The position numbers were made by a program, and so were the translations under genes. Below the pieces are notes generated by a model. The model saw nothing but the letters and a program-made list of their open reading frames with translations. It ran no database searches and was not told the origin of the DNA. DNA of 64,000 nt, taken from the IMG/VR virus record IMGVR_UViG_3300017569_000126, positions 4,865 through 68,864 of that record. One strand, 5' to 3'. Origin of the DNA: a virus (Duplodnaviria; Caudoviricetes). Shown here one piece after another: positions 13,370 through 64,000 of the stretch (positions are counted from its first letter, which is position 1; each line of letters starts with the position of its first letter).

Positions 13370-14536
13370 ATGAACGTCGATGTTGTAATTGGTGCTAATT
13401 TTGGCGATGAAGGCAAGGGAGCAGTCACTAACAGCCTTTGTAAAGAGCATAAAGACGAAACCAAACTTAATGTTCTTTTTAACGGCGGGTGTCAGAGAGG
13501 GCACAATGTAAAGGATAGAATTATTGAACACACTTTTCATTGTTTTGGCAGTGGATATTATAGTGGCGCTGATACCTACTACGAAAAAGATTTTATGATT
13601 GACCCCTTTGGGTATGCAGCAGAAGCGAATGTTCTGAGTTCTTTTCCCATTCAGGTGATTGCTCATCCTGAGTGTCAGATTGTTTTTGTTATGGACAAAG
13701 CTGTTAATCGCGCGGTAGAAGGACTTCGTAATAATCGTCACGGCTCATGTGGCATGGGGATTTATGAAGCATGGAACCGTGTGAATAATGGCTGTTCTTG
13801 TACTGTTCTGGATTGTGGCGTGTTTGACCTCGCAAAACTTTTGAAAGATGTAAGCGCTTATTATAGAGATGTTCGCATTCCAGAGGTTGCGAAGGAGCTT
13901 CACGTTCCCGAAGAAAAGGTTTTGGGCAAAATAAACGAAGTTCTTACTCGTGATGGTGACTGCGATATTAGTGCTTGGGTTTATTGTATGAAATCTTTCT
14001 ATAAAAATTGCGATATAAGTGCTAACCCTTATAAATATTATGATTATGTGATTTTTGAGGGTGGTCAGGGGCTTGCCTTGGATATGGATAATAAAAAATA
14101 TTGGCCTCATCTTACTCCCTCTCACACTGGTCTTGCCAATCTTGTTCGGCCTCTGAAAAATTTGGGATGTACTTATCAAGTAAATTATATCTCACGTCCT
14201 TATTATACACGTCATGGAGCGGGAACTCTCCGCAACGAAATGAAAGCATCTGAGCTTCCTTTTGCTTTGTCAGAGGATATTAACGTACCGAACTCTTATC
14301 AAGGAACTTTGCGTTATGCACCTTTAGACTCTGAAATTCTAAAGAGAATAGAGAACGATAAGCATTATGCTGGCGATGTTGGTCTGCCTTTTATTTCTCG
14401 TATTGTGATGACTCACTTGGATGAAACGGACGGGAAAATTTTCTATAAGAACAATCAGACCAAATCCGAGCCTCATTTTATCTCTTTGGATAAGGCAAAG
14501 ACTTTTATGGGGAGGATAGACCCGTTCAACCCCTAA
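13370..14536 (+). CDS. purA: divergent adenylosuccinate synthetase-like protein
   Basis: VVIGANFGDEGKG, GG.Q.GH, HGSCGMGI, IFEGGQGLALD, HLTPS.TG, TRHGAG motifs. Confidence 0.75.
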   Translation: MNVDVVIGANFGDEGKGAVTNSLCKEHKDETKLNVLFNGGCQRGHNVKDRIIEHTFHCFGSGYYSGADTYYEKDFMIDPFGYAAEANVLSSFPIQVIAHPECQIVFVMDKAVNRAVEGLRNNRHGSCGMGIYEAWNRVNNGCSCTVLDCGVFDLAKLLKDVSAYYRDVRIPEVAKELHVPEEKVLGKINEVLTRDGDCDISAWVYCMKSFYKNCDISANPYKYYDYVIFEGGQGLALDMDNKKYWPHLTPSHTGLANLVRPLKNLGCTYQVNYISRPYYTRHGAGTLRNEMKASELPFALSEDINVPNSYQGTLRYAPLDSEILKRIENDKHYAGDVGLPFISRIVMTHLDETDGKIFYKNNQTKSEPHFISLDKAKTFMGRIDPFNP

Positions 14537-29978: not shown

Positions 29979-30947
29979 ATGGCTTTCCAAAAAGCTGTTA
30001 GAGAAAAATTGTGGGCCAAGGTTTTACTTGCAGGGCCAAGTGGGAGCGGTAAGACTTATTCGGCCTTGCGACTTGCAAAAGGTCTAAGCCAAAAAACTGG
30101 TGGAGCTGGCGTGGCATATATTGATACCGAAGCTGGACGTGCAAATTATTATGCAGACCAGTTCGATTTTGACACAATGATTTTGCAGGAGCCTTATACA
30201 CCAGAAAAGTATATTGATGCGATTGATGAAGCTGTTGCTGCTGGGTACAAAGTTGTCTGTATAGACAGTCTGACACATGAATGGTTGTTTTTGAATGAAA
30301 CTCATAGTAAAATGCCCGGGAACAGCTTTCAAACGTGGGGGCCGCTAAAGGCACGTCATAAGCTACTAATGGAAAAAATCTTGCAAGCTCCGATTCACAT
30401 TATTGCAACTGCTCGTGGCAAGGATGCTTATGTGCTTGAAACGAACGAAAAGGGTAAACAAACGCCCAAAAAAGTCGGTGAGGGAATCGACGGAGACAAG
30501 CAACTTGAATATAATTATACTTGTACTTTCCAGCTTTCTCAAGATACCCATGTGGCAAGCGTGACAAAAGATAACACTCATATCTTTGAAGGAAGATTTG
30601 ATAAGCTGACAGAAAATGATGGTGTTCTTCTTTACAACTGGTGTAATAGCGGAGCAACGCCCAAGCCTCGAATGACTACCGTGGACGAGAATAAGGCTTC
30701 CACTTCCAACCTCACCCCAGAAGCGCCAATCGAGCTTAGTTATCCAAGCGAACTTCCTGATGCTATCGCAAATATTGGGAGACTTGCAAAGCAGCTCGCG
30801 GCTAATGGCGTAACAAGAAATGAGATTTCAAGCGCGATTTCTAAGTTTAACATTGTGGATGGAAAGCCAAGCGCAAATTATAACGCAATTACTGAAATTG
30901 ATGTAGCAAGGAATGTTCTCGATGCGCTTTCGAGCATTTCAAAGTAA
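29979..30947 (+). CDS. AAA_24-type phage ATPase (Sak4-like recombination protein)
   Basis: LAGPSGSGKT, YIDTEAG, CIDSLTHEW, IIATARGK motifs; next to ssb. Confidence 0.8.
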   Translation: MAFQKAVREKLWAKVLLAGPSGSGKTYSALRLAKGLSQKTGGAGVAYIDTEAGRANYYADQFDFDTMILQEPYTPEKYIDAIDEAVAAGYKVVCIDSLTHEWLFLNETHSKMPGNSFQTWGPLKARHKLLMEKILQAPIHIIATARGKDAYVLETNEKGKQTPKKVGEGIDGDKQLEYNYTCTFQLSQDTHVASVTKDNTHIFEGRFDKLTENDGVLLYNWCNSGATPKPRMTTVDENKASTSNLTPEAPIELSYPSELPDAIANIGRLAKQLAANGVTRNEISSAISKFNIVDGKPSANYNAITEIDVARNVLDALSSISK

Positions 30948-34670: not shown

Positions 34671-36369
34671 ATGATGAATTATGTGCAAACTCATATTCAT
34701 TCTGATATTTCATTATTAGATTCATGTACGAAGTTTCAAGATTATGTACAACGCGCTGTGGAGTTGGGGCAAACAGCTATTGCAAGTACAGAACATGGTG
34801 TGATTTATAATTGGGTAGAAAAAAAGAACGTTTGCAATGCTGCGGGATTAAAGTACATTCATGGAGTGGAATGTTATTTAACTGAAAAACTAAAACATAC
34901 GAGGTTGGATGGCTCTACTTTTAAGATTAGGGACAATTACCATACAATTCTCTTGGCAAAAAATCAAGGGGGAATAAAAGAATTAAATTCTATTGTATCT
35001 AAATCCTCTTTAGACTCGCACTTTTATTATAAACCGCGAATTAGTTTTGATGAGTTTTTGCAGTTATCCGACAATATAATTACTACATCTGCGTGTTTAG
35101 CATCAAGTATTAACCTTGATAATTTTAATAAAACGGGGCAAGAAATACTTGAGCAATGTGGTGAAAATGCTTATAGAGAACATCTTGCATGGTATGAAAA
35201 GCTGTGCCAAAGATATGATTTTTTTGAGGTTCAGCCACATTATATGAGCCAAGAACAAGCGGCTTTTAATGAATATTTGCTTTCACTTGCAAAAAAATAT
35301 CAAAAGCCAATTATTTGTGGTTGTGATGTACACAGTATCAATAATTATAAGGCTGAGTGCCGCAAAATATTCAAAGAGTATAAAAAAATTGAATATTTAT
35401 CAGAAGATGATTTCGATTTAACATATCATAGTTATGATGAAATTTATGATATGTTCAAACGACAAAACGTGTTGTCGGACGCACAAATTGAAGAAGCGTT
35501 GCATAACACATTGGTTGTTGCAGATTCCGTTAATGACCCCGACCTTGACAGAACAACAAAATATCCAGACATGGGCGATGGAGCAGAGGATAAATTCGTT
35601 AATCGTGTTTGGTCTATGTTTAATAAAAAAATAGACGACGGCGTTATTCCAACATCGCAAAAAGCGGCTTTTGAAACAAAGCTTGATGAAGAAATTCGTG
35701 TGTTTAAGAAAGTAAATATGTGTACTTTTATGCTATCAATGTCGGAAATTATTGGGTGGTGCAAAGCCAACGGAATTGCAGTTGGGCCAAGTCGAGGAAG
35801 TTGCGGAGGCTCTTGCGTGGCGTATGTTACTGACATAACGGACTTGAATCCCGTCCGATGGAACACTGTGTTTTCACGCTTTTGCAATGAAAACAGGGTC
35901 GAAATTGGAGACATTGATGTTGATATTTACGAAGATGATAGGCCGATTGTATATCAACATATAATTGATACATTTGGCAAAGAGAAAACGGCTTATGTTC
36001 TTGCCCTTGGCACAATAGCAGAAAAAGGAACCATTGATGTTATTGGTGGAGCATTGGCAAAAAGATGGGAGAAAGACCATCCAGATGACGAGCAAAATCC
36101 ATATTCTTTAAGTATTATTGCTAAAATAAAAAAGGAATATGATAACAACCCTAAAGGCTGCAAAGAAAAATATCCTGATATTTTTTATTATTTTGAAGGG
36201 TTGGTTGGGACGTACCAGTCGCAATCTATGCACCCCGCTGGCATGATAATTTCCCCTGTTACTTTAGCTGATAATTATGGCACTTTTGTAAAAGACGATA
36301 TGCAAATACTTTGTCTTGATATGGACAATTCGCATGATGTTGGATTGGCAAAATATGATATTCTTGGGT
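34671..36369 (+). CDS. dnaE: DNA polymerase III alpha subunit, exon 1
   Basis: PHP motifs HIHS..S.LD, TEHG, HGVE.Y; GPSRGS.GGS; GDIDVD; SMHPAG; ends KYDILG at the intron boundary. Confidence 0.92.
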
Positions 36370-37722
36370 AAAACTTTGCCCAAGTAAAACGGGGTTATAT
36401 GCTGGGAAGTCCTTAGAGCTTTTGGAGCCAAAGTGCAAAAGACCAAAAGATTGGATAATCAGCAGGGAAGCGTAAGCGCCCTCAACGACTATGAGAATAT
36501 CTCAATTATATTTAAGCGATTATATATAATAACCCCCGTAAAGCAAAAGCTGAATGATATAGTCTGGACTTCTATCGAAAGGTAGAGAGCCAAGCAGAAA
36601 TGACTTGGCAACTGCGTTATAAATTACTTGTAGTGGAGGTGGTCTTATAAGTAAAAAGAAAATTACAAAAGAAGTGTTTGTTAATGAAATTAGAAGGCTC
36701 TATAATATATACGGAAATGTTAATGTGCATATTTGGAATGAACATAGTGAAATTGAAGGGAACTTCCAATGTTATTGCCATCGTTTTGGTGGACTCCGTA
36801 ATATAATGAATGAGTTAGGATTACAGCATTTACAATACAATCAGAAGACCAAGGAAGAAATCATTCGCTGCTGTCATATTGCATTAGAAAAAGAGGGCAA
36901 GTTAAGAAGCGAAATACTTGATAAATATGGAGTATCGGGCTGTGTTGTCAAAAGACTGTTTGGCTCATATCAAAATATGTATAAAGAAATTGGATACGAG
37001 AGCGGCTTTCATCGGAATGTTGAATTTAATGATGTAGAACAAGATATACTTAAAGTTACTCGTGAACACAATAGTATATCAAGTCTAACATATAGAAAAT
37101 ACGGTAAATATTCGACTACAATCACTGATAGATTCGGTGGGTGGTGCGCGGTGCTACGCAGAATTGGAATAGAACCAATAGAGCCTAAAGTTGGGAAAGA
37201 AGAAATCGACAAACAAATTTATGATGTAATTAACGAGTATGGGTATTTATCAAATAACTTGATAGAAAATAATTGTTCGTTTTCGTTGCAAGCGCTAATG
37301 TGGTATTACGGAAGCGTTGATAAACTTGCAAAACATTATAATACAGAGTATTATTCCAGTGTTAGAATGAGCAGTGGAGCCAAAACCGTTTATCAAAAGT
37401 TAGTTGATAAGTATGGAGAAGATAATGTTGAAACAGAAAAAACTTGGCCGTGGTTGCGAAATATAACAGGAAAACATTTGTATTGCGATTTTTATATACC
37501 TCAAATCAATACTGCTATAGAGTATGATGGAGAGCAACACTTCAAGTTTGTTCCAACGATACACAAAACGCAAGAGGCATTTGACGCATTAGTAGCAAGA
37601 GATATGTTGAAGAATAAATTGCTACGGGAAAATGGTGTGGCACTTATTAGGATACCATACTCAACAAAAATCGAAAATAGCTTGTTTGATGACTTGTAAA
37701 ATAACGCAGTTTAACAAAATCG
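36370..37722 (+). mobile_element. group I intron in dnaE carrying a homing endonuclease
   Basis: P1 CTTGGGT/GCCCAAG with U-G at the splice site; P3 GGGGTTAT/ATAACCCC; P ATGCTGGGAA; Q AATCAGCAG; R CTCAACGACTAT; S GATATAGTC; terminal G 37722; removal restores KYDILGLRNIGII. Confidence 0.92.
36674..37699 (+). CDS. intron-encoded homing endonuclease: N-terminal repeats plus Vsr/EDxHD-like PD-(D/E)XK domain
   Basis: four repeats of a ..RFG(G/S)W/Y....IG type; C-terminal CDFYIP...AIEYDGEQH...D..KN......LIRIPY. Confidence 0.8.
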   Translation: MFVNEIRRLYNIYGNVNVHIWNEHSEIEGNFQCYCHRFGGLRNIMNELGLQHLQYNQKTKEEIIRCCHIALEKEGKLRSEILDKYGVSGCVVKRLFGSYQNMYKEIGYESGFHRNVEFNDVEQDILKVTREHNSISSLTYRKYGKYSTTITDRFGGWCAVLRRIGIEPIEPKVGKEEIDKQIYDVINEYGYLSNNLIENNCSFSLQALMWYYGSVDKLAKHYNTEYYSSVRMSSGAKTVYQKLVDKYGEDNVETEKTWPWLRNITGKHLYCDFYIPQINTAIEYDGEQHFKFVPTIHKTQEAFDALVARDMLKNKLLRENGVALIRIPYSTKIENSLFDDL

Positions 37723-39248
37723 TAAGAAACATTGGAATTATAAAGAAATGCACGGAATATATTGGAACTCATTTTCCAAAGTCTCATGAGATTGACTGGA
37801 ATGATACAGAGGTTTGGGACAGTATAAAAAAATCTCCAATAGGAATTTTTCAATTTGAAGAAAGTTTTGCCTTTTCCTTGTTAAAGAAATTTGGGACAAA
37901 TTCGATAGAAGATATGTCGCTTGTTACTGCTTGTATTAGACCGTCTGGTGCAAGTTACCGCGATAATTTAATAGCAAGAATCCCGCATAAAAACCCATCT
38001 AAAATTATTGATGATATGCTAAAAGATAATTTGGGTTATCTTGTATATCAAGAAGATACAATTAAATTTTTGCAAGATATTTGTGGATTTAGTGGGAGCG
38101 AAGCGGATACGGTTCGACGCGCAATCGGTCACAAAGATGCGAAAAAATTGCAAGAAGCAATCCCCAAAATCCTTGACGGGTATTGTACGAAATCCGATAA
38201 GTCTCGTGAAATAGCAGAGCAAGAAGCTAAAGAATTTCTACAAATTATTGAAGATAGTTCATCTTATCAGTTTGGCTATAATCACAGTATAGGTTATTGT
38301 TTGCTTGGATATTTGTGCGGATATTATAGGCATTACTATCCATTAGAATTTCTCACGGCTTTTTTTAATTGCTCGAAGACAGAAGAAGATTTCGTCAATG
38401 GAGATATTCTTGCAAACGAATTGAAAATTAAAATTCTTCCACCGCGTTTTCGCCACTCAAAGGCCGAATATTTTTATGATAAGGAATTAAACGCTATTTA
38501 TAAAGGAGTAGGCTCAGTAAAATACCTAAATGGAGCTGTGGCAAATGAGTTGTATAATCTAAAAGATAATGCTTACACAACGTTTGCTGGTTGTCTTATG
38601 GATATTTATCATAAAACAACTATTGACTCTCGACAGTTGGATATTCTTGTAAAATTAGATTATTTTAAGGAATTTGGAACACAGAGAGAACTGCTGCAAA
38701 TTATAAAAGTGTTTAACGAATTTAGGGCTGGCGAAGCCAAACCAGTCAAAAGCATAAAAAAAGACAAGTTTAACAATGATGATATTATGACCGCAATTAT
38801 TTCTCGCCATGCAATAGGAACGACAAAGGCAGGGAAAGAATCAAAAAACTGGACAATAACAAATTTGGACGGTTTGATTGACGAGTGCGAAGCATATTTA
38901 CGTCTTCTTAACTTGCCCGATTTACCAATAAAAGACCAAATTGCAAACCAGTTGAAATACACAGGAAATATTTCAATAGTGACAGGAGCACAAAAAGATA
39001 GACCAAGAATTATAATAATAGATAAACGTATATTAAAATCAAAGGAAAGCAACCAGCCTTGGGCTTGTGCCATAACAGGGCAGTCCATCGGAAGCGGAAA
39101 GCGTTCTGAGTATACAATACCTTATGAATTATACAAACGCCAGCCTTTTAAGAATAGTGAAGATGACATTAGCATTATCCGCATATTAGATTGGTACAAA
39201 AACAAAAAAGGATATTTTTGTATAAAAAAGTACGAACTTGAAATATGA
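37723..39248 (+). CDS. dnaE: DNA polymerase III alpha subunit, exon 2
   Basis: GIFQFE, IRPSGA, GYLVYQE, A...RRAIG, Y.F..NHS.GY, YP.EF..A; spliced CDS is 3225 nt (1074 aa). Confidence 0.92.
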
Positions 39249-44763: not shown

Positions 44764-44776
44764 TAAATTGTGAATT

Positions 44777-44820
44777 AGCAGCGGATAACACTTGACTTAT
44801 CCGCTGCTTTATGTTATAAT
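44777..44820 (+). promoter_or_regulatory. promoter whose -35 lies inside a 12-bp perfect inverted repeat
   Basis: AGCAGCGGATAA-N8-TTATCCGCTGCT; TTGACT 44792, TATAAT 44815. Confidence 0.75.
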
Positions 44821-44864
44821 AAAGACGAAGTAAAAGATAAAACAATAAGAAGGGTGATACAAGA

Positions 44865-45485
44865 ATGATTTACGGATATTGTAGAACATCACGAAAGCAG
44901 CAAAATATTGAACGGCAAATCAGAAATATTAAAAAAGCATATCCCGATGCTGTGATTGTCACTGAGAAAGGTGTAACGGGTACGACAATGAAACGTCCAG
45001 AATGGAGCAAGTTGTACCATACTTTAGAAGAAGGAGATACCGTTGTTTTTGACGATGTGTCGCGCTTGGCAAGAAACTGCGAAACTGGATTGACGCTATA
45101 TAAAGAGCTATGCAATCGCGGAGTCGGTATTGTATTCTTGAAACAACCGCAAATCAACTCAGATGTATTTCTGTGTTCTGTTGATATAATGGAATACCAA
45201 GTTAAATTAGCCTTTGAACAGGCAGAGAAAGAAGTCACAGACTTGCATCAACGCACTAAAGAAGGTATTGAAACAGCACGTTTGAATGGCAAACAGATAG
45301 GACGCAAGGAAGGCTCGAAAATTGAAACCAAAAAGGCCAAAGAGGCAAAGCAGACCATCAAGGATTATTCTAAGGACTTTGGCGGCTATTTGAAAGATAC
45401 AGAAGTTATGAAGATGCTTAATGTTAGCAGACCTACCTATTATAAATATAAGGCAGAACTAAAAGCCGCAAAGGTCACAACGTGA
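44865..45485 (+). CDS. small serine recombinase (resolvase/invertase family)
   Basis: IYGYCRTS..QQNIERQ, EK..TGT...RPE, GDTVV...VSRLAR, G...A..NG..IGRK, C-terminal HTH (LNVSRPTYYKY). Confidence 0.9.
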   Translation: MIYGYCRTSRKQQNIERQIRNIKKAYPDAVIVTEKGVTGTTMKRPEWSKLYHTLEEGDTVVFDDVSRLARNCETGLTLYKELCNRGVGIVFLKQPQINSDVFLCSVDIMEYQVKLAFEQAEKEVTDLHQRTKEGIETARLNGKQIGRKEGSKIETKKAKEAKQTIKDYSKDFGGYLKDTEVMKMLNVSRPTYYKYKAELKAAKVTT

Positions 45486-57088: not shown

Positions 57089-57352
57089 TCAAGACTCGGC
57101 AGAAGTCTCCGTTTCAGTTTCGGCAGCTTCGGTTTCAGTGGTATCAGCGGCTTCGAGCGATGCGATTTCAGCTTCATAAGCGTTGATATTATCGCGCCAA
57201 GTTTGACGCTTTGCTTTCATGTCTGCGTATTCATCTTCGGTCAATGCGCCATCGGCGTATTTCATGCACTGATAGTCTGATTGAGAGAGAAAGAGTTTAC
57301 AAGCTCTAATCTCCGACTCCAAGTATTCAATTCTTTCACTATTTTGTTCCAT
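57089..57352 (-). CDS. small tail-associated hypothetical protein
   Basis: AAAGAGG RBS; L..SDY...KY.DG.....EY..MKA.RQ.WR..IN pattern. Confidence 0.65.
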   Translation of the reverse strand: MEQNSERIEYLESEIRACKLFLSQSDYQCMKYADGALTEDEYADMKAKRQTWRDNINAYEAEIASLEAADTTETEAAETETETSAES

Positions 57353-58503
57353 AGTTTTACCTCTTTCTGTTCTTTAGGTGTATTTGCAAATATCCTATAA
57401 AACAGCCTCGTCATATTCAAGACCGTCTTAAAAGTATTTTTATGTTCGGCATAGCTTTTCCAAGACTGGAAAGAAGCGTAAGCTTGCCCGAAACTCATGC
57501 AACCAGCATTAACAAATTTGATAAATTTCTTTAATTTACGGCGCATTGCAGTAACGCCTTTTCTGCATATGCGTTTTACTATCTTGCCGTTTTCTTCTAC
57601 GAAGAATTGAGTCTTTAGAAAAGTAAAACCTTTTGTTAATTTAACAATTTTTGTTTTCTTTTCATTGACTACAATCTCGTATTGTTTATACCATTCTCGG
57701 AGAATAGTCAATATACGTTCGGCTTCTTCTTTGGTTTTGACTATAATTAAAGTGTCATCTGCATATCTGACATAGGCTTTTAATTTTAGAACTTCTTTTG
57801 CGTAGTGGTCTATTCTGTTCATAAACACACCAGCAGCAGCTTGGCTTACTTGTGAACCAAGCCCCAAGCCCTTATTACCAAATGCCGCAACAAAGCTCCA
57901 ACACAAATCAAACAGCTTCTTATCTTTTATATAATGTTCAAATATCTCTTTCAACTTTTTATGAGATATATTGGCAAAATATGATGAAAAATCTATTTGT
58001 ATAACATAGCCATTTCTTCCGTATTTGCGGTAATGGCGTTCAAGAGAACATTGTGCTCTCTTTATAGCAAACTGAATACCTTTGTTCTTTATACTTGCAC
58101 CATTGTCGTATATCAAAGTAGGTGTAAAAAGCGGAGACAAGACTTCATCACATACAACTCTTTGAACTATTCTCTCGCGGAAATGAACACTTTGTATAAA
58201 CCTCGCTTTTCCTCTTTCAAAGAGTGTAAATTGAATAAACCCCATGCGCATATCTTTTCCAGCAATCATTTCTTTATGAATTGTATGCAGATTTTCAAGC
58301 AGAGTTATTGATGCCTTTTGAGTGCTTTTCTTCCAACTAACGCCAAGCTTTGATAACAGATATGCACGATAAAGCGCATCTAATGTTATAGTATTATCAA
58401 AGGTAATTTGCACCGCTTTGCTTTTATCATGTTTAGCTTCTCTTAGTTTGATTCTATTTAATCTTCTTCGTTTTCTTCTTGATGGCTTTATCGGCTCATC
58501 CAT
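57262..58503 (-). CDS. DGR reverse transcriptase
   Basis: K.R.I....FRERIVQ, LIYDN.A....KG...A, Y..QIDFSSYF..I.H, GLGLGSQVSQ, YVRYADD, F.FL; adjacent TR and avd. Confidence 0.92.
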   Translation of the reverse strand: MDEPIKPSRRKRRRLNRIKLREAKHDKSKAVQITFDNTITLDALYRAYLLSKLGVSWKKSTQKASITLLENLHTIHKEMIAGKDMRMGFIQFTLFERGKARFIQSVHFRERIVQRVVCDEVLSPLFTPTLIYDNGASIKNKGIQFAIKRAQCSLERHYRKYGRNGYVIQIDFSSYFANISHKKLKEIFEHYIKDKKLFDLCWSFVAAFGNKGLGLGSQVSQAAAGVFMNRIDHYAKEVLKLKAYVRYADDTLIIVKTKEEAERILTILREWYKQYEIVVNEKKTKIVKLTKGFTFLKTQFFVEENGKIVKRICRKGVTAMRRKLKKFIKFVNAGCMSFGQAYASFQSWKSYAEHKNTFKTVLNMTRLFYRIFANTPKEQKEVKLWNKIVKELNTWSRRLELVNSFSLNQTISA

Positions 58504-58828
58504 AAGAAATCACCTATTTCAATTCCTTAAAACAGCCCGTACCGTTCAGTACAATAAATTAAAGTAAAGTACAATATCTACGCATTTTTCTAACGGCGTG
58601 ATTGTACCAAGTATGCAACGAGAATATGCGTAAAAATCTCGCCATGCACGCGCATCAATGACCTTTCTTGGCAATAAATAACTATATCGGTCTGATGGCG
58701 GCGTCCACTTGACAATATCGAGCTATAAATTTACGAACTTAATCGGGGGACATTCACTCCTTCCGAAGTACCACGGACTTTGAGAGAATCAAAGTGTCAG
58801 GGCATATTTGTATAGGAAAATACATATT

Positions 58829-58969
58829 CGGAATCACAGCGGCTCGGACAGCCAATCATTAGAGTTGGAGGCCGCATTGTTGTTCGCATTGCCATTGTTG
58901 TTGACATTGCAGAAGTTCGTAGACGAACCAGCCTGCGCTGATGCCAACCACCAGTTATTACGCCCAGCA
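58829..58969 (-). repeat. DGR template repeat (TR)
   Basis: 141 bp matching 60546-60686; AAC/AAT-rich on the minus strand; all 21 mismatches fall at TR adenines. Confidence 0.95.
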
Positions 58970-59006
58970 ATAGAATACAGCGAATATCCCTAATTTATAA
59001 AAATTC

Positions 59007-59441
59007 TTACTCTTTCTTTTGGCTTTTATTTAGTTCACTAATTCTTTTTGAAGCGGCCTCACGAACGCCAATTATTTTAGATTTTAGTCGAGACATTGTG
59101 TCGAGAATCGCTTCTGCTTCGGATAATTTAATTCCGTTAAGATTAACCGCGAACAAAATTTCTTCATCAAGAACCGCAATTTTCGATAGAATATCTTCGG
59201 CCAAATCGTGTTTCTTTTGGCACTTTTCGACAGAGGCGTTATTAGTACAACTGATAACAACAGCGTTGTCGTTAATCTCTCGAACAAGGTTTATTGTCGG
59301 AATTTTGAGAGTGAATGTGCAAGATTTTGGATAACGCTTTGGAGAATCGCAAAAAACATGAACACGCTTTCTTAATTCCCTTGAAAGCTCCAAATACTCT
59401 AAGCCAGTTGGTGTATGATTTCTCTGATTAACATTACTCAT
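59007..59441 (-). CDS. avd: DGR accessory variability determinant (Avd-like four-helix bundle)
   Basis: 144-aa helical protein immediately upstream of TR; RYPK..F.L motif; call rests largely on position. Confidence 0.7.
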   Translation of the reverse strand: MSNVNQRNHTPTGLEYLELSRELRKRVHVFCDSPKRYPKSCTFTLKIPTINLVREINDNAVVISCTNNASVEKCQKKHDLAEDILSKIAVLDEEILFAVNLNGIKLSEAEAILDTMSRLKSKIIGVREAASKRISELNKSQKKE

Positions 59442-59446
59442 AATTC

Positions 59447-60337
59447 TTATACCTCATTCTTAATACGCTTTAGAAAAAGCACGATAATATCTACCGTCGA
59501 ACTGTCTGCTATTAAAGAATAGCGAATTGTATCACTTCTCATACAAGTATAATTGTCTGGAAGGGTTTGCAATCTTTCGTATTCAATAGGCATTAGCTTT
59601 CGACACTTTCCACTTTGAAAAATCTTTCTCACTTGATACCCGCCATGATGGGTGGTTATGACTCCACATTTGCCATCAAGTCCGTATACACGCCGATTCA
59701 TTTCGTGCGTGTTGATGTTCAGGTAAGCAACTACATTATGCCCTTCGCTGGACGTAAGAGTGTAATCATTCTGACACCAATATCTCTTGTGGACTAAACT
59801 TGGCGGCTCAACAATATCTCTGAGAACAAGGCTTTTTACTGGTGATTGTACGCAATCAAATGGCGAAGCCTGTATATTGCTCCAATACAATTTTTCTCGG
59901 CGTTGAGCTGAAACAATGCTGCTGTTGATTAAAACTGGTTTTACTTTAAGAGCATCGGCTATAATTTGCTGATTTTTCTCAGAAACAACATATGTTTCCA
60001 GTAAAAACCATTTTGGCTTTATATAATCAACAACACGCTTAAATTCATAAAATAGTTTATTATTTTCGTTAGAATCGTCACAAAAATCCAAATTGGATAA
60101 ACCACCAAAAACCATGTCTATTTGGTCTAAGGACTTTAGGACGCTGTTGCTTAATTTATATACGTTTCCAATCTCGTATATATCGTCATAATTTCTCAAA
60201 GCAACATCAATAGCTTGCATGTTGGTTTCACAAGCATAATACTTGAACACGTCTATTTCTGCTCTTTCAAGAGCCACGCGAAAACTTGCTATTCCATCAA
60301 ATAAGCTTAACACTGTCATACTCATTTCTCCTTTCAC
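59447..60337 (-). CDS. C5-cytosine methyltransferase homolog lacking the catalytic Pro-Cys
   Basis: VLSLFDGI, SAQ.R..LYW.N, L.P.EYERLQTLPDNYT present; motif IV reads GGLSNLDF and motif VI reads LLETY. Confidence 0.8.
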   Translation of the reverse strand: MKGEMSMTVLSLFDGIASFRVALERAEIDVFKYYACETNMQAIDVALRNYDDIYEIGNVYKLSNSVLKSLDQIDMVFGGLSNLDFCDDSNENNKLFYEFKRVVDYIKPKWFLLETYVVSEKNQQIIADALKVKPVLINSSIVSAQRREKLYWSNIQASPFDCVQSPVKSLVLRDIVEPPSLVHKRYWCQNDYTLTSSEGHNVVAYLNINTHEMNRRVYGLDGKCGVITTHHGGYQVRKIFQSGKCRKLMPIEYERLQTLPDNYTCMRSDTIRYSLIADSSTVDIIVLFLKRIKNEV

Positions 60338-60535
60338 TACGATATAGATATGCCTCGTGTTTATAAAAATTTTTATAAATTTAATAAATTACTGCATTGG
60401 AATCACCCATAAACCTTTCATTTTAGAAGTGGTATTTCATAACAATATAGACATCGTTTGTCGGAGCAGATAGCTCCGAGCAAACGTGTCATTGAAGTCA
60501 AAGGCTATATTTTATATGGCCCTTGCGGGTCTGGC

Positions 60536-61402
60536 TTACGCCAGACGGAAGCACAGCGGCTCGGACAGCCAATCACCAGAGGTGGAGGCCGCAGAGTTGC
60601 CCGCAAGGCCATCGTAGCTGACACAGCAGAAGGCCGCAGACGAACCAGCCTGCGCTGATGCCAACCACCAGGTACCACGCCCAGCAGGGCTGGTCGAGCT
60701 TTTGCCCTTTAGGCGGCTTTTCCAGTTGTTAGCGAACAGTGGATATTGCATAGCTTGCTGAGAACCCCACGTCTGGTCACTCCAAATAGAAGTGCCAAAA
60801 ACTTCAAATTCGGTGGGGAGCCAAAGCTTACCAATATCCTCCCACTCCCAAGACGTAGAATCGGTCAAAGTTCCATTTGCAGAATAGCGATATTCCATAA
60901 TAGTACGCTTTGTAACAATAACACTCTGCAAATCAGAATCAAGAGTACCGTAGACTTCATCGCCGTTGAGCCAAGTGTACATCTCACTTGCAAGCCAGGG
61001 AGAGTGCGAAGTTTCGGTTCCGTTGTTGGTATTGGTACTATTCATAACGTGTCCTGTACCAAGTAAACCTACACTAATCCAGTCGATGTGGTGGCCAATA
61101 GCAGTATCGCCAGTATTGTAATAAGTATCAATACCAGCAATTTGCATTCTAACAGTGCTGCCCATACAAGTGGTGTCTTTATAGTCACCGACCATGATGT
61201 TATTGGCGGCGGCAGTACCAGCCTTAGCAATGGTGCTAAGAGAAGCCCATGTCATGCTGTTCAGGCTGCGGCCCAAACCATCAATGGGGAATCTGTCTGT
61301 GCGGCTCAGACCGTTATAAATACGGTTTTCCAAGTCATTAAGAGAAGTGTAGTTTAGCGGGGTTGAAGATGTATTACCCCAAGTCTTTTTAGTAAAATTC
61401 AT
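60536..61402 (-). CDS. DGR target protein, DUF6273/C-type-lectin-fold tail or adhesin-like
   Basis: W..SEMY.WLN, KLWLPTEFEVFG, QYP.F, C-terminal WWLAS...FC.V..G.A...A motif containing the VR. Confidence 0.85.
   Translation of the reverse strand: MNFTKKTWGNTSSTPLNYTSLNDLENRIYNGLSRTDRFPIDGLGRSLNSMTWASLSTIAKAGTAAANNIMVGDYKDTTCMGSTVRMQIAGIDTYYNTGDTAIGHHIDWISVGLLGTGHVMNSTNTNNGTETSHSPWLASEMYTWLNGDEVYGTLDSDLQSVIVTKRTIMEYRYSANGTLTDSTSWEWEDIGKLWLPTEFEVFGTSIWSDQTWGSQQAMQYPLFANNWKSRLKGKSSTSPAGRGTWWLASAQAGSSAAFCCVSYDGLAGNSAASTSGDWLSEPLCFRLA
60546..60686 (-). repeat. DGR variable repeat (VR)
   Basis: 3' end of target ORF; differs from TR only at TR adenines. Confidence 0.95.
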
Positions 61403-61533: not shown

Positions 61534-62016
61534 TTAACGAAGTAAGTGTTTTGCATCTCGAAGTGCATTGACTTTTGCTGCGCGATATTCCTTTTCATAA
61601 TCGCTATCGGCTTTTTCCTTATTAACGATTATTTTATCTCGCGTTTCTATAAGCAAATTGTAAAATCTTATCTTGTCTTTTATATAAGAACTCATTTCTG
61701 CGCTGTGCGAGATGTTTTTATTATAAAGGTCAATGTCTTGCTGAAAATCTTTTATGGCAGAGTTTATTCCCTCAACATCCAGTTTTATAAACATAGAGCT
61801 ATTGTTAGTGAAATAACATTCGGCAACAGCGGGGTATGTCATGAAATCTGGATAATCATATTCCAAATCGTATTCATCGAAGCTCTTATTTGGAATACAA
61901 ACCTCACCACCCAAAAACTTGCCATATCTTGATTGGAATAACCAATCCTCTTTAGAATCAACAATCATATAACGATTAAATATGTGTATCATTTTATCAA
62001 CCCCTTTTATTCCCAC
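61534..62016 (-). CDS. hypothetical protein
   Basis: tiling; start probably MIHIF. Confidence 0.65.
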   Translation of the reverse strand: MGIKGVDKMIHIFNRYMIVDSKEDWLFQSRYGKFLGGEVCIPNKSFDEYDLEYDYPDFMTYPAVAECYFTNNSSMFIKLDVEGINSAIKDFQQDIDLYNKNISHSAEMSSYIKDKIRFYNLLIETRDKIIVNKEKADSDYEKEYRAAKVNALRDAKHLLR

Positions 62017-62447
62017 GATAGACCATATAGCATTTCTAAAGCATACAAGTAGTCATTACATTCTTCCATGTGCTGTTCCCATTTTGGATTTCCATTTGCT
62101 CTTTCTTCGTTCCATATATCATCCATCGACTTTACTCTGTTTAGAATTTCACTACTATCAGAGCTTTCTATCTCGGTATATTTCCTCGTGAATTTATTGA
62201 ATTTTATAATTGTCGGAAAGTTCAAGATGTTTTCCTGATATTTCTCACCATACTTAGTAGAAATCCATCCCATTGTGTACCCGTGTAAAATTCCCTTTGG
62301 AGCAAAACAATTATCAAATTCTCTGCGAGAAGTGACTACAAAATATCTTGGATAGTCAGTATCGCTTAGTCTATTGTCTTTTATACTCATAAATTTTTCC
62401 ATTTTAATCACTCCTTTCTTCCAATTATAAAAGTTGACAAAAAGCAT
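62007..62447 (-). CDS. hypothetical protein (start probably MEKF near 62402)
   Basis: GAAAGGAG RBS. Confidence 0.65.
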   Translation of the reverse strand: MLFVNFYNWKKGVIKMEKFMSIKDNRLSDTDYPRYFVVTSRREFDNCFAPKGILHGYTMGWISTKYGEKYQENILNFPTIIKFNKFTRKYTEIESSDSSEILNRVKSMDDIWNEERANGNPKWEQHMEECNDYLYALEMLYGLSWE

Positions 62448-62452
62448 ATTTT

Positions 62453-63298
62453 GTGTATAAATATTTAACGTACTATCGTTATATATTTAAGCAATTCAAG
62501 CTAAAATACAGCAGAACCACGTTGTTTTATGAAATCGCACCAAAACAAAATTCTACTTCTGTTTCCATCGCCAACACCGCACAGGAAATAACTGGTAATA
62601 AAGGCGGTTATGTTGTAATACGCGACGCGGACGAAGATGATTACCCAGACGAAATACTCATAATGAACGCCGCCGATGTAAAACACAGCACAAAAGTTTG
62701 GCGTTGGAATAAAGGCGGCTTAGGATACGCCTCTGGTGATACTCCTTATGACAGTAGCACTGGTAGATATGTTTATGAAGACGATGACAAATATAGTCTT
62801 GCAATCACACAGGATGGTAAGATAAACGCCAGCTTCATTCAAACAGGTACACTAAATGCTGATTTGATTCAGACTGGAAGTATAGATGCCGAAGAAGTAA
62901 CAATAAAAAATTTATCTGCCAGTTCAATTACCACTGGTACACTTAGAACCAACTCAGGGACACTTTCTATCAATCTTGACAATAATTATCTTTCCCTCGG
63001 AGGTTATGGACAAGGATTGTATATAAATAGATACGGCTCAATAGGGGCCTATGGAAGTGTATATAATGGCTCTTATGCAACATCGGGGCTGTTTAAGGGA
63101 GACACTGGATATTTTGATTTGGCATCATCATGGGTTGTGGGCTTTCCGGGGCCGGGGCCAATATTCGTTATAAAATGGCACAGGGTATGGTTTGTCAATG
63201 GACTATTTATTGGTGTTTCTGATGGTTATGGGCAATCGGAAAAAGACGAAACATGGTCGTATTCTGGCGTTCCAAGCACATGGAATGGCAATTATTGA
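62453..63298 (+). CDS. silent alternative tail-protein C-terminal cassette (no convincing start)
   Basis: ITGNKGGYV..DEILIM..KVWRWN.GGLG..AIT.DG.INA.FI.TG.LNAD typical of phage minor tail proteins; opposite strand to the structural module. Confidence 0.7.
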   Translation: MYKYLTYYRYIFKQFKLKYSRTTLFYEIAPKQNSTSVSIANTAQEITGNKGGYVVIRDADEDDYPDEILIMNAADVKHSTKVWRWNKGGLGYASGDTPYDSSTGRYVYEDDDKYSLAITQDGKINASFIQTGTLNADLIQTGSIDAEEVTIKNLSASSITTGTLRTNSGTLSINLDNNYLSLGGYGQGLYINRYGSIGAYGSVYNGSYATSGLFKGDTGYFDLASSWVVGFPGPGPIFVIKWHRVWFVNGLFIGVSDGYGQSEKDETWSYSGVPSTWNGNY

Positions 63299-63301
63299 TA
63301 C

Positions 63302-63619
63302 AATGCTGATTTTGTGAACATCACTGGAACTCTCAACAGTGTGACCATAAAAAGTAGCACGATAACAGGCAATACAATAAAAGGTGGGACAATTCGCATA
63401 GGGGATTACAGCGATTATATATATATGTCTTCTGGTGGTATATATGTCCACACAAGTGACTATCAGTCATACCAATCCACAAAGAGTTCAAAGAGTTTTG
63501 GAGTTCACTATGGGTATGGACGGAGTGCCATTGTTCAAGTAGATGTTCCATGGTGGACGCCAGATTACATATGGCTAAAGTTTATAAATGGTTTGCTTGT
63601 AGATGTAATTACTTCGTAA
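63302..63619 (+). CDS. second silent tail C-terminal cassette
   Basis: open frame from the repeat (NADFVNITGTLN...) to TAA 63619; ends WLKFINGLLV. Confidence 0.7.
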   Translation, partial: NADFVNITGTLNSVTIKSSTITGNTIKGGTIRIGDYSDYIYMSSGGIYVHTSDYQSYQSTKSSKSFGVHYGYGRSAIVQVDVPWWTPDYIWLKFINGLLVDVITS

Positions 63620-64000
63620 TTACACATTCCATATAGATGGTGGCGAACTTGCGCCTGTGTTTAATATCCCATCACCCGTAGACCCAACCATAAGGCCATT
63701 ACAAAACCATAAGGTGCGAGTGTCCCATGTCATTCCAAGCCCTGTTAATGGTACGCCGCCAGTAATTTCTGTGACAGTCGCACCACCTGTCCTTCCACGA
63801 TATAACCCATATGTACCGTTTATCGTACCACTCGCACCAATATAACCAGACGAACTAATATATAGGGCTTTTGAGTTCACTGAAAAATAATTTTCGTCTA
63901 AGGATATTGAAATACTTCCTGACTCGCTGCTGATTTTCCCTGATGTAATAGAATTTGCGCTTAAATTTATAACGTTCACAAAATCAGCATTTAGTGTACC
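63620..64000 (-). CDS. 3' end of a tail protein gene entering from the right edge (probably the expressed C-terminus)
   Basis: frame open to the window edge: GTLNADFVNVINLSANSITSG...WFCNGLMVG. Confidence 0.75.
   Translation of the reverse strand, partial: GTLNADFVNVINLSANSITSGKISSESGSISISLDENYFSVNSKALYISSSGYIGASGTINGTYGLYRGRTGGATVTEITGGVPLTGLGMTWDTRTLWFCNGLMVGSTGDGILNTGASSPPSIWNV

Follow-up and report, generated by a model that had tools for sequence, protein, structure and literature searches.

What does the right-hand end of a viral contig encode, where the 3' end of a tail gene meets two open reading frames on the opposite strand that lack usable start codons? The contig is IMG/VR record IMGVR_UViG_3300017569_000126 (68,864 bp; completeness rating ~60%), and the window analysed here is the 64,000-nt stretch formed by its bases 4865-68864. 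A preliminary description had proposed shufflon-like invertible cassettes that give a tail protein three alternative C-termini. Our analysis makes it very probable that the locus is a multi-site programmed DNA inversion system, shufflon-like in kind, at the 3' end of a tail-tip gene. In the proposed mechanism, one crossover site (s3) would lie within the expressed gene, and two sites of opposite orientation (s1 and s2) would precede promoterless, start-less tip cassettes (A and B). Exchange between s2 and s3, the step captured in assembled contigs, flips 63302-63991 and turns tip C into tip B; exchange between s1 and s3 would install tip A.

The window holds the tail-tip gene in its "C" state. 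The gene runs leftwards into the window as a minus-strand frame that is open to the window end and stops at 63620-63622, and its tip, cassette C, occupies 63620-63973. The silent tips lie on the plus strand, cassette A at 62866-63298 (~144 codons; stop TGA at 63296-63298) and cassette B at 63320-63619 (stop TAA at 63617-63619), in frames without a usable start, of which one runs to 63298 and the other covers 63299/63302-63619. The stop codons of B and C abut with 0 nt between them, and one codon (TAC) separates the stop of A from the next N-A-D. Each tip carries a C-terminal (W/K)F-x-N-G-L motif (WFVNGL in A, KFINGL in B and WFCNGL in C). The gene end at 63620, the two start-less frames, the gaps of 0 and 3 nt and the shared motif had all been described before and were confirmed. 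Protein alignments (A versus C, 38% identity, E 4e-23; B versus C, 27%, E 4e-8; A versus B, E 2e-4) indicate that A, B and C are diverged paralogues. A search with cassette C against 1.8 billion cluster representatives returned only 3 matches at E <= 1e-3, so the tip domain appears lineage-specific; its AlphaFold2 model, from a 7-row alignment, had a mean predicted local distance difference test score of 49, too low for a fold search.

Two perfect inverted repeats connect the cassettes with the gene, 62846-62865 with 63981-64000 (20 nt, 100%) and 63302-63319 with 63974-63991 (18 nt, 100%), in the lengths and orientations first reported. An 11-nt core, AATGCTGATTT, occurs three times in the 64 kb, with s1 and s2 on the plus strand and s3 on the minus strand (shuffle mean 0.10; three copies in 0/100 shuffles). 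At s1, s2 and s3 alike the core is read AAT-GCT-GAT, which bears out the common N-A-D start and reading frame of the preliminary description. Because the codon phase of AATGCTGATTT is shared by every site, a reciprocal exchange within the core preserves the frame. The contig terminates at window position 64000, inside s3, so that the 20-nt repeat is clipped by the record, and the final 9 nt of s3 are the sole bases of the constant part of the main gene inside the window.

To supply the missing sequence, we turned to the 281-aa frame containing A, whose 90% cluster also includes proteins from other JGI metagenome contigs, and fetched these contigs. Contig L051, 98.9% identical to the window across a 570-nt overlap (64000-63431), encodes a tape measure protein of at least 1940 aa (PF10145, E 5e-31), a 284-aa DUF6558 protein ("phage tail protein N-terminal domain") and a 1271-aa main protein whose N-terminus resembles minor tail protein PHROG 6211 (E 4e-20) and which ends in cassette C. 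This gene order, with the main gene behind those for the tape measure and distal tail, and the N-terminal match indicate that a long-tailed phage's tail-tip or receptor-binding protein is the product of the invertible gene. L051 also gave the true span of the clipped repeat: s3 falls at codon 1146 of the main gene, and the s1/s3 identity is exactly 20 nt, the preceding base being g in the L051 main gene and a in the silent module F that adjoins s1. The remaining visible 68.9 kb carries replication and nucleotide-metabolism genes. The phage is probably a long-tailed, sipho-type virus of a Firmicute-type gut or rumen bacterium. Exact-protein look-ups with two neighbouring genes, their version on contig L046 and the B frame returned no record.

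Direct evidence for inversion came from three further samples, in which a 119-aa frame of silent C had been called as a gene on contigs L052 (2122 nt), L053 (1563 nt) and L054 (908 nt). By blastn, L052 positions 1-782 equal window 62538-63319, positions 765-1454 equal window 63991 down to 63302 in reverse, and positions 1437-2122 (686 nt) equal the L051 main gene, each at 100% identity, and the overlaps between these segments are exactly the 18-nt s2/s3 identity. The flipped segment of 690 nt (63302-63991) is 100% identical to the window in all three contigs. To its left the flank matches the window at 100% over 782 nt (127 nt in L054), and the 127-nt main-gene stretch of L053 and L054 is 100% identical to L051. 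The junctions are precise reciprocal recombinants: the first reads A stop, TAC, core, C, and the second reads B (reverse), core, TAGTGTACC, main gene. The main gene of these contigs therefore reads uninterrupted through s3 into B, now the expressed tip, and C is silent on the opposite strand behind A. Parental order was found in the window and in L049 plus L051, inverted order in L052, L053 and L054. These results show that L052-L054 are the conservative product of s2 × s3 inversion on an otherwise identical genome, with tip B replacing tip C; for this pair, the proposal that inversion swaps the expressed tip is borne out. The feature is real, and the switch works at s2 × s3. Most likely, the inversion serves as a receptor-specificity switch within the phage population.

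In serine invertase systems, the crossover sites are 26 bp long, with imperfectly symmetric 12-bp halves around a 2-bp crossover. The 26-nt form of s3 (site at 63974-64000, minus strand; 26-nt form 63999-63974) is GTACACTAAATG-CT-GATTTTGTGAAC, a 12-CT-12 arrangement with dyad symmetry at 9/12 positions, and the actual cleavage point lies somewhere within the 11-nt common core. Site s1 (62846-62872, plus strand) has a 26-nt model at 62847-62872, with a good half-site toward the constant side and a degenerate half toward the cassette; the left half of s2 (63294-63319, plus strand) overlaps the stop codon of cassette A. A dyad pattern built from the two halves of s3, ACWAAAT-N4-ATTTWGT, fits s3 with 0 mismatches and fits s1, s2 and a proposed outer crossover site, s0 (62545-62562, plus strand), with 2 each, at coordinates that coincide with the identity blocks. 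It has 12 matches in the window versus 4.9 expected, a number that no shuffle attains, and 5 of them are at this locus. When the 3.8-kb main gene was scanned, matches fell only at s3 and at s0', the partner of s0. In gene orientation, the central CT stands at codon positions 2-3 in all sites from s0 to s3. Judged by their letters, the sites fit the dyad model AC(A/T)AAAT-N-CT-N-ATTT(A/T)GT, the layout expected for a small serine recombinase dimer that cuts a central dinucleotide. Since s1 and s2 are direct repeats, deletion of cassette A is formally possible; no A-deleted form was present among the fetched contigs. In serine invertase systems, a recombinational enhancer and the host factor Fis enforce inversion over deletion.

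A candidate enzyme is encoded at 44865-45485 (plus strand), a small serine recombinase of 206 aa (PF00239, E 3.5e-25; PHROG 125 "DNA invertase", E 2.5e-42). It has the N-terminal catalytic motif Y-C-R-T-S, the motif S-R-L-A-R and a C-terminal helix-turn-helix, its catalytic motifs are intact, and its gene has its own promoter-like element, TTGACT-17 nt-TATAAT. This is the sole recognisable site-specific recombinase in the 68.9-kb record, where tyrosine recombinases (PF00589) gave no match at E <= 0.1, with ~40% of the genome outside the record, and neither IS110/Piv-type (DEDD) recombinases (PF01548) nor the large-serine "Recombinase" domain were found. Recombinase domains were likewise absent from the six genes within 5 kb leftward of the invertible region and from the tape-measure and DUF6558 genes to the right. 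As no recombinase gene adjoins the segment, the enzyme must act in trans. From its being the only candidate seen, together with the dyad-symmetric sites and their asymmetric central dinucleotide, we infer that the phage's own serine recombinase, acting in trans, may perform the inversion; it is the most likely enzyme, with about an even chance of being the right one. Alternatively, the enzyme could come from the host or be encoded in the 40% of the genome that lies outside the record. A perfect 12-nt hairpin (AGCAGCGGATAA...TTATCCGCTGCT) at 44765-44830 overlaps the -35 of the promoter-like element and either terminates the upstream gene or controls expression of the recombinase.

Related strains show how the locus varies. 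Contigs L047 and L048 are ~95% identical to the window as far as 63315 and retain s0, s1, s2 and s3. In cassette content they have A', a new silent one named D (92 codons; C-terminal residues Y-F-S-K-G-I-L-V-G) and, as the expressed tip, a B-like module 44% identical to B, which indicates that the cassette repertoire turns over and the sites persist. Among 23 loci with distant F homologues (<=48% identity; IMG/VR, metagenomes and GTDB genomes), none had an inverted partner of at least 14 nt, and similarity was lost at the site region; the system is thus not a family-wide trait. In IMG/VR, queries with the 17-nt site, the 18-nt s0, a 30-mer from cassette C and the C protein found nothing beyond chance matches and L046, and distant blastn against INPHARED phages gave no match. 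L047 (15741-15825) and L048 (7245-7329), from different samples, both terminate 85 nt upstream of the DUF6558 gene; L051 continues past this end point into the tape measure, which points to a strain-specific break or a variable spot.

The third tip, A, is likely to be obtainable by s1 × s3 exchange. Cassette A stands behind the same core in the same codon phase and is under purifying selection, and the contig end agrees: the final base of the window contig is also the final one that "C-s3-main" and "C-s1-F(reverse)" share, which fits an s1 × s3 polymorphism in the window's own sample. F, the silent alternative middle module (62563-62845, plus strand), is in frame and has no start codon; the lone nearby ATG belongs to another frame, and a ribosome-binding site is not apparent. 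It resembles the tail-protein part that precedes the tip (PHROG 1067, E 1.6e-25; PHROG 5555, E 1.4e-17), and the F-A unit aligns, with deletions, to the last ~320 residues of the main protein. The preliminary description had expected the ~300 bp before s1 to repeat the main gene, with an inverted copy of ~62570-62865 beyond 64000. We rejected such a long inverted repeat: F is a diverged homologue, with 39% protein identity to residues 980-1078 of the L047 main gene and ~52% nucleotide identity overall to that of L051, and its perfect identity to the main gene is confined to two short blocks. In an exact-word comparison of F-A with the main gene, these blocks were s1/s3 and s0. Between the window and L047 lineages, F has 10 synonymous versus 6 non-synonymous differences, with a ratio of non-synonymous to synonymous polymorphism (pN/pS) of 0.16 (p 3e-4); pN/pS is 0.34 for cassette A (p 2e-4) and 0.02 for the constant part of the main gene. 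Across strains, purifying selection acts on both silent modules, F and A.

This constraint on a start-less F is best explained by occasional expression after inversion at an outer pair of sites, s0 × s0'. The s0 block, ACAAAATTCTACTTCTGT(T) at 62545-62562(63), is an inverted, mismatch-free copy of main-gene nt 2835-2852(53) at codon 945 (Q-N-S-T-S-V), 18 nt long, or 19 nt against the L047 main gene, and it sits at the extreme 5' edge of the stored homologue. Contig L046 (IMG/VR; 98.5% identical over 10.5 kb) terminates exactly at 62562, the last base common to F and a window-like main gene; the next base is T in F and C in the main gene. Exchange between s0 and s0' (codon 945) would flip a larger, enclosing segment and replace the last ~320 residues with the stored F-A unit. 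On these sequence features we infer, tentatively and at a little below even chance, a nested two-level swap in which the s0 pair may exchange the middle, allowing up to 2 middles × 3 tips (six proteins). That one trans-acting serine recombinase recognises two site classes sharing a half-site and the central CT, within such a two-tier system, is possible and, to us, slightly more doubtful still.

Several observations weigh against this account of the sites and their enzyme. No assembled s1 × s3 or s0 × s0' product was found, and no F-C, F-B or main-A fusion protein was present among 5.8 billion proteins. The left ends of L052 and L053 (62538) are one base past a G/A single-nucleotide polymorphism between strains at 62537; such polymorphisms can also end contigs, so the two end coincidences for s1 × s3 and s0 are suggestive rather than conclusive. 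The idea that every contig end here is an inversion site has to be tempered by these two ends and by the L049/L051 break, which falls in a (TA)n run. The sequence of s0 differs from that of s1-s3. The serine recombinase gene lies 17.4 kb from the invertible region, its product is nearer Tn3/gamma-delta resolvases (E ~1e-11) than Gin (E ~1e-6) and scores far under the Mpi cut-off, no inverted sites were seen within 8 kb of its relatives (48-53% identity) on contigs of other phages, and the unseen ~40% of the genome could hold another recombinase. The evidence on orientations consists of assembled contigs.

Some of these points would suit homologous recombination, by host RecA or by the phage's own Sak4/UvsX-like protein (29979-30947), as the source of the inversions without a dedicated recombinase. 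Any short perfect inverted identity between diverged paralogous ends would then suffice, s0 being a sharp 18-19-nt identity block like the others despite its different sequence, and the serine recombinase, distant from the segment and with relatives that show no nearby sites, would do something else. However, 18-20 nt is very short for efficient homology-driven exchange, and yet the isomers reach assembly-level abundance in several samples. Moreover, all sites including s0 share the dyad model, the central CT and the codon phase, and sharp perfect blocks amid ~52%-identical sequence resemble conserved recombinase sites. We therefore regard homologous recombination as unlikely and favour programmed site-specific inversion.

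Each assembled contig has one orientation, as would be expected if two fixed strains were separated by a single ancient inversion and no switching occurred today. But true strains of this phage differ by 1-5%, and the isomers are 100% identical across ~2.1 kb, which indicates that inversion happened recently or is still under way. Sample 3300029968 has a contig, L050, that ends at 63319, the final position at which "s2 then B" and "s2 then C" still agree; exactly 127 nt of L050 are shared with L054, whose other end is the 127-mer that starts at the inner edge of s3. A break of this kind, exactly at the site boundary, is what a branch point looks like in an assembly graph of k = 127, and both orientations probably coexist in that sample. 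Purifying selection also maintains the silent cassettes, and fixed strains are a very improbable explanation. It is scarcely credible that short inverted repeats gave rise to the inverted contigs as artefacts of the assembly or the library: these contigs are short, at 908-2122 nt, and sit where the graph branches, yet 18-nt repeats are far below the 127-nt contig overlaps, so that real reads must span the junctions, and the same junctions, both giving intact frames, were assembled independently in three samples.

Programmed inversion of this kind is familiar from the Mu Gin/G segment, the P1 Cin/C segment and the p15B Min multiple-inversion system, all driven by serine invertases (PMC6109161). 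As in Gin, Cin and Min, the constant 5' part of the tail gene lies outside the invertible DNA and the alternative 3' parts inside, the short inverted crossover sites are within coding sequence and can be written as dyads, with an A-tract in the half-site and a dinucleotide at the centre, and the phage encodes a small serine recombinase. As in these systems and Pin, inversion of the segment exchanges the 3' end, and here both orientations are assembled, joined at reciprocal junctions that keep the frames intact; the presence of more than two sites, and hence of several isomers, is a feature shared with Min. In contrast to Gin, Cin and Min, the recombinase is 17.4 kb from the segment and closer to resolvases, the segment lacks tail-fibre assembly (U/U'-like) genes, the phage is of sipho type with a probable Firmicute-type host, and an internal module may be exchanged through a further class of site.

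The arrangement of cassettes also recalls tyrosine-recombinase shufflons, which have at least three crossover sites between promoterless C-terminal cassettes (here s1-s3 and the s0 pair, with A, B and C, and D in L047). The Rin shufflon of Bifidobacterium prophages has an adjacent tyrosine recombinase and an 11-nt rix core (PMC6109161). Like our locus, it consists of a constant receptor-binding-protein gene followed by promoterless C-terminal cassettes, each behind an 11-nt core, and its isomers were found by comparison of assemblies (PMC6109161); unlike it, no tyrosine recombinase was found in our 68.9 kb, and the core sequences are unrelated. BV01-like Phocaeicola gut phages have a three-cassette tail-fibre shufflon with up to six isoforms (preprint PMC13596623). 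Like our locus, that shufflon has three cassettes where the tail-fibre gene ends distally, uses a short directional motif that carries extensions, and has isoforms known from gut metagenomic or viral-tagging data (PMC13596623). The two systems differ in that the BV01-like recombinase flanks its system, the phage is a temperate Bacteroidota phage, and its cassettes are non-homologous, whereas ours are paralogues. In the R64/IncI shufflon (Rci, pilV), multiple inversions among sites likewise choose one C-terminal adhesin end, but with the tyrosine recombinase Rci, 19-nt sfx sites and a plasmid conjugative pilus adhesin as the target. In bacterial genomes, few genes are targeted by programmed inversion as commonly as those for tail fibres (PMC9881135). 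The mechanism is therefore known and the layout unusual, with a distant recombinase, no chaperone genes in the segment, homologous cassettes, a probable enclosing site pair and a nearby retroelement target.

This retroelement, a diversity-generating retroelement, adjoins the shufflon at 57262-61402. Its reverse transcriptase is encoded at 57262-58503 (PF00078, E 2.5e-22; PHROG 1423, E 6e-77), and its template and variable repeats, 141 nt each (~58829-58969 and 60546-60686), are 85% identical. The variable repeat lies inside a 288-aa DUF6273 gene, with a C5-methylase homologue and a 144-aa gene in between, and the store of alternative ends is 1.1 kb from this target gene. Between the target gene and the shufflon, two small minus-strand genes, 62007-62447 (146 aa) and 61534-62016 (160 aa), occupy the position of the invertase in classical systems; their proteins had no Pfam or PHROGs family match and nothing usable in the ESM Atlas. 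A near-perfect intergenic dyad, ACAAAA-AGCATA-TTTTGT (62437-62454), stands 91 nt upstream of s0. It has 1 mismatch to the site model, with a different centre, and overlaps a rightward promoter-like TTGACA(62434)-16 nt-TATAAA(62456) that points into the silent cassettes. This dyad is a candidate accessory or regulatory site that might bind the recombinase or a regulator. Elsewhere in the window, a 388-aa protein (13370-14536) resembles PHROG 1211 (E 1.1e-38), the PurZ-type adenylosuccinate-synthetase-like family of 2-aminoadenine phages, a match which hints that the phage may modify its adenines. At 34671-39248 the DNA polymerase is split into 566- and 538-aa frames that match consecutive parts of PHROG 405, and the 1.26-kb insert between them is presumably an intron or homing element.

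The inversion polymorphism likely caused the truncation of this viral contig, since the related L050 demonstrably breaks at an inversion site, and contig ends that fall on short inverted repeats could be used to find such systems. According to a paper of 2018, an enzyme acting in trans had not been reported for phage genomes (PMC6109161). If true, the nested design would let shaft and tip modules be combined compactly, and phage host-range engineering could take it as a template. From assemblies alone, the locus documents a natural switch, active at present and most likely one of host range, in a large phage known without cultivation, and it extends tail-fibre shufflons beyond the classical enterobacterial and the Bacteroides/Bifidobacterium cases.

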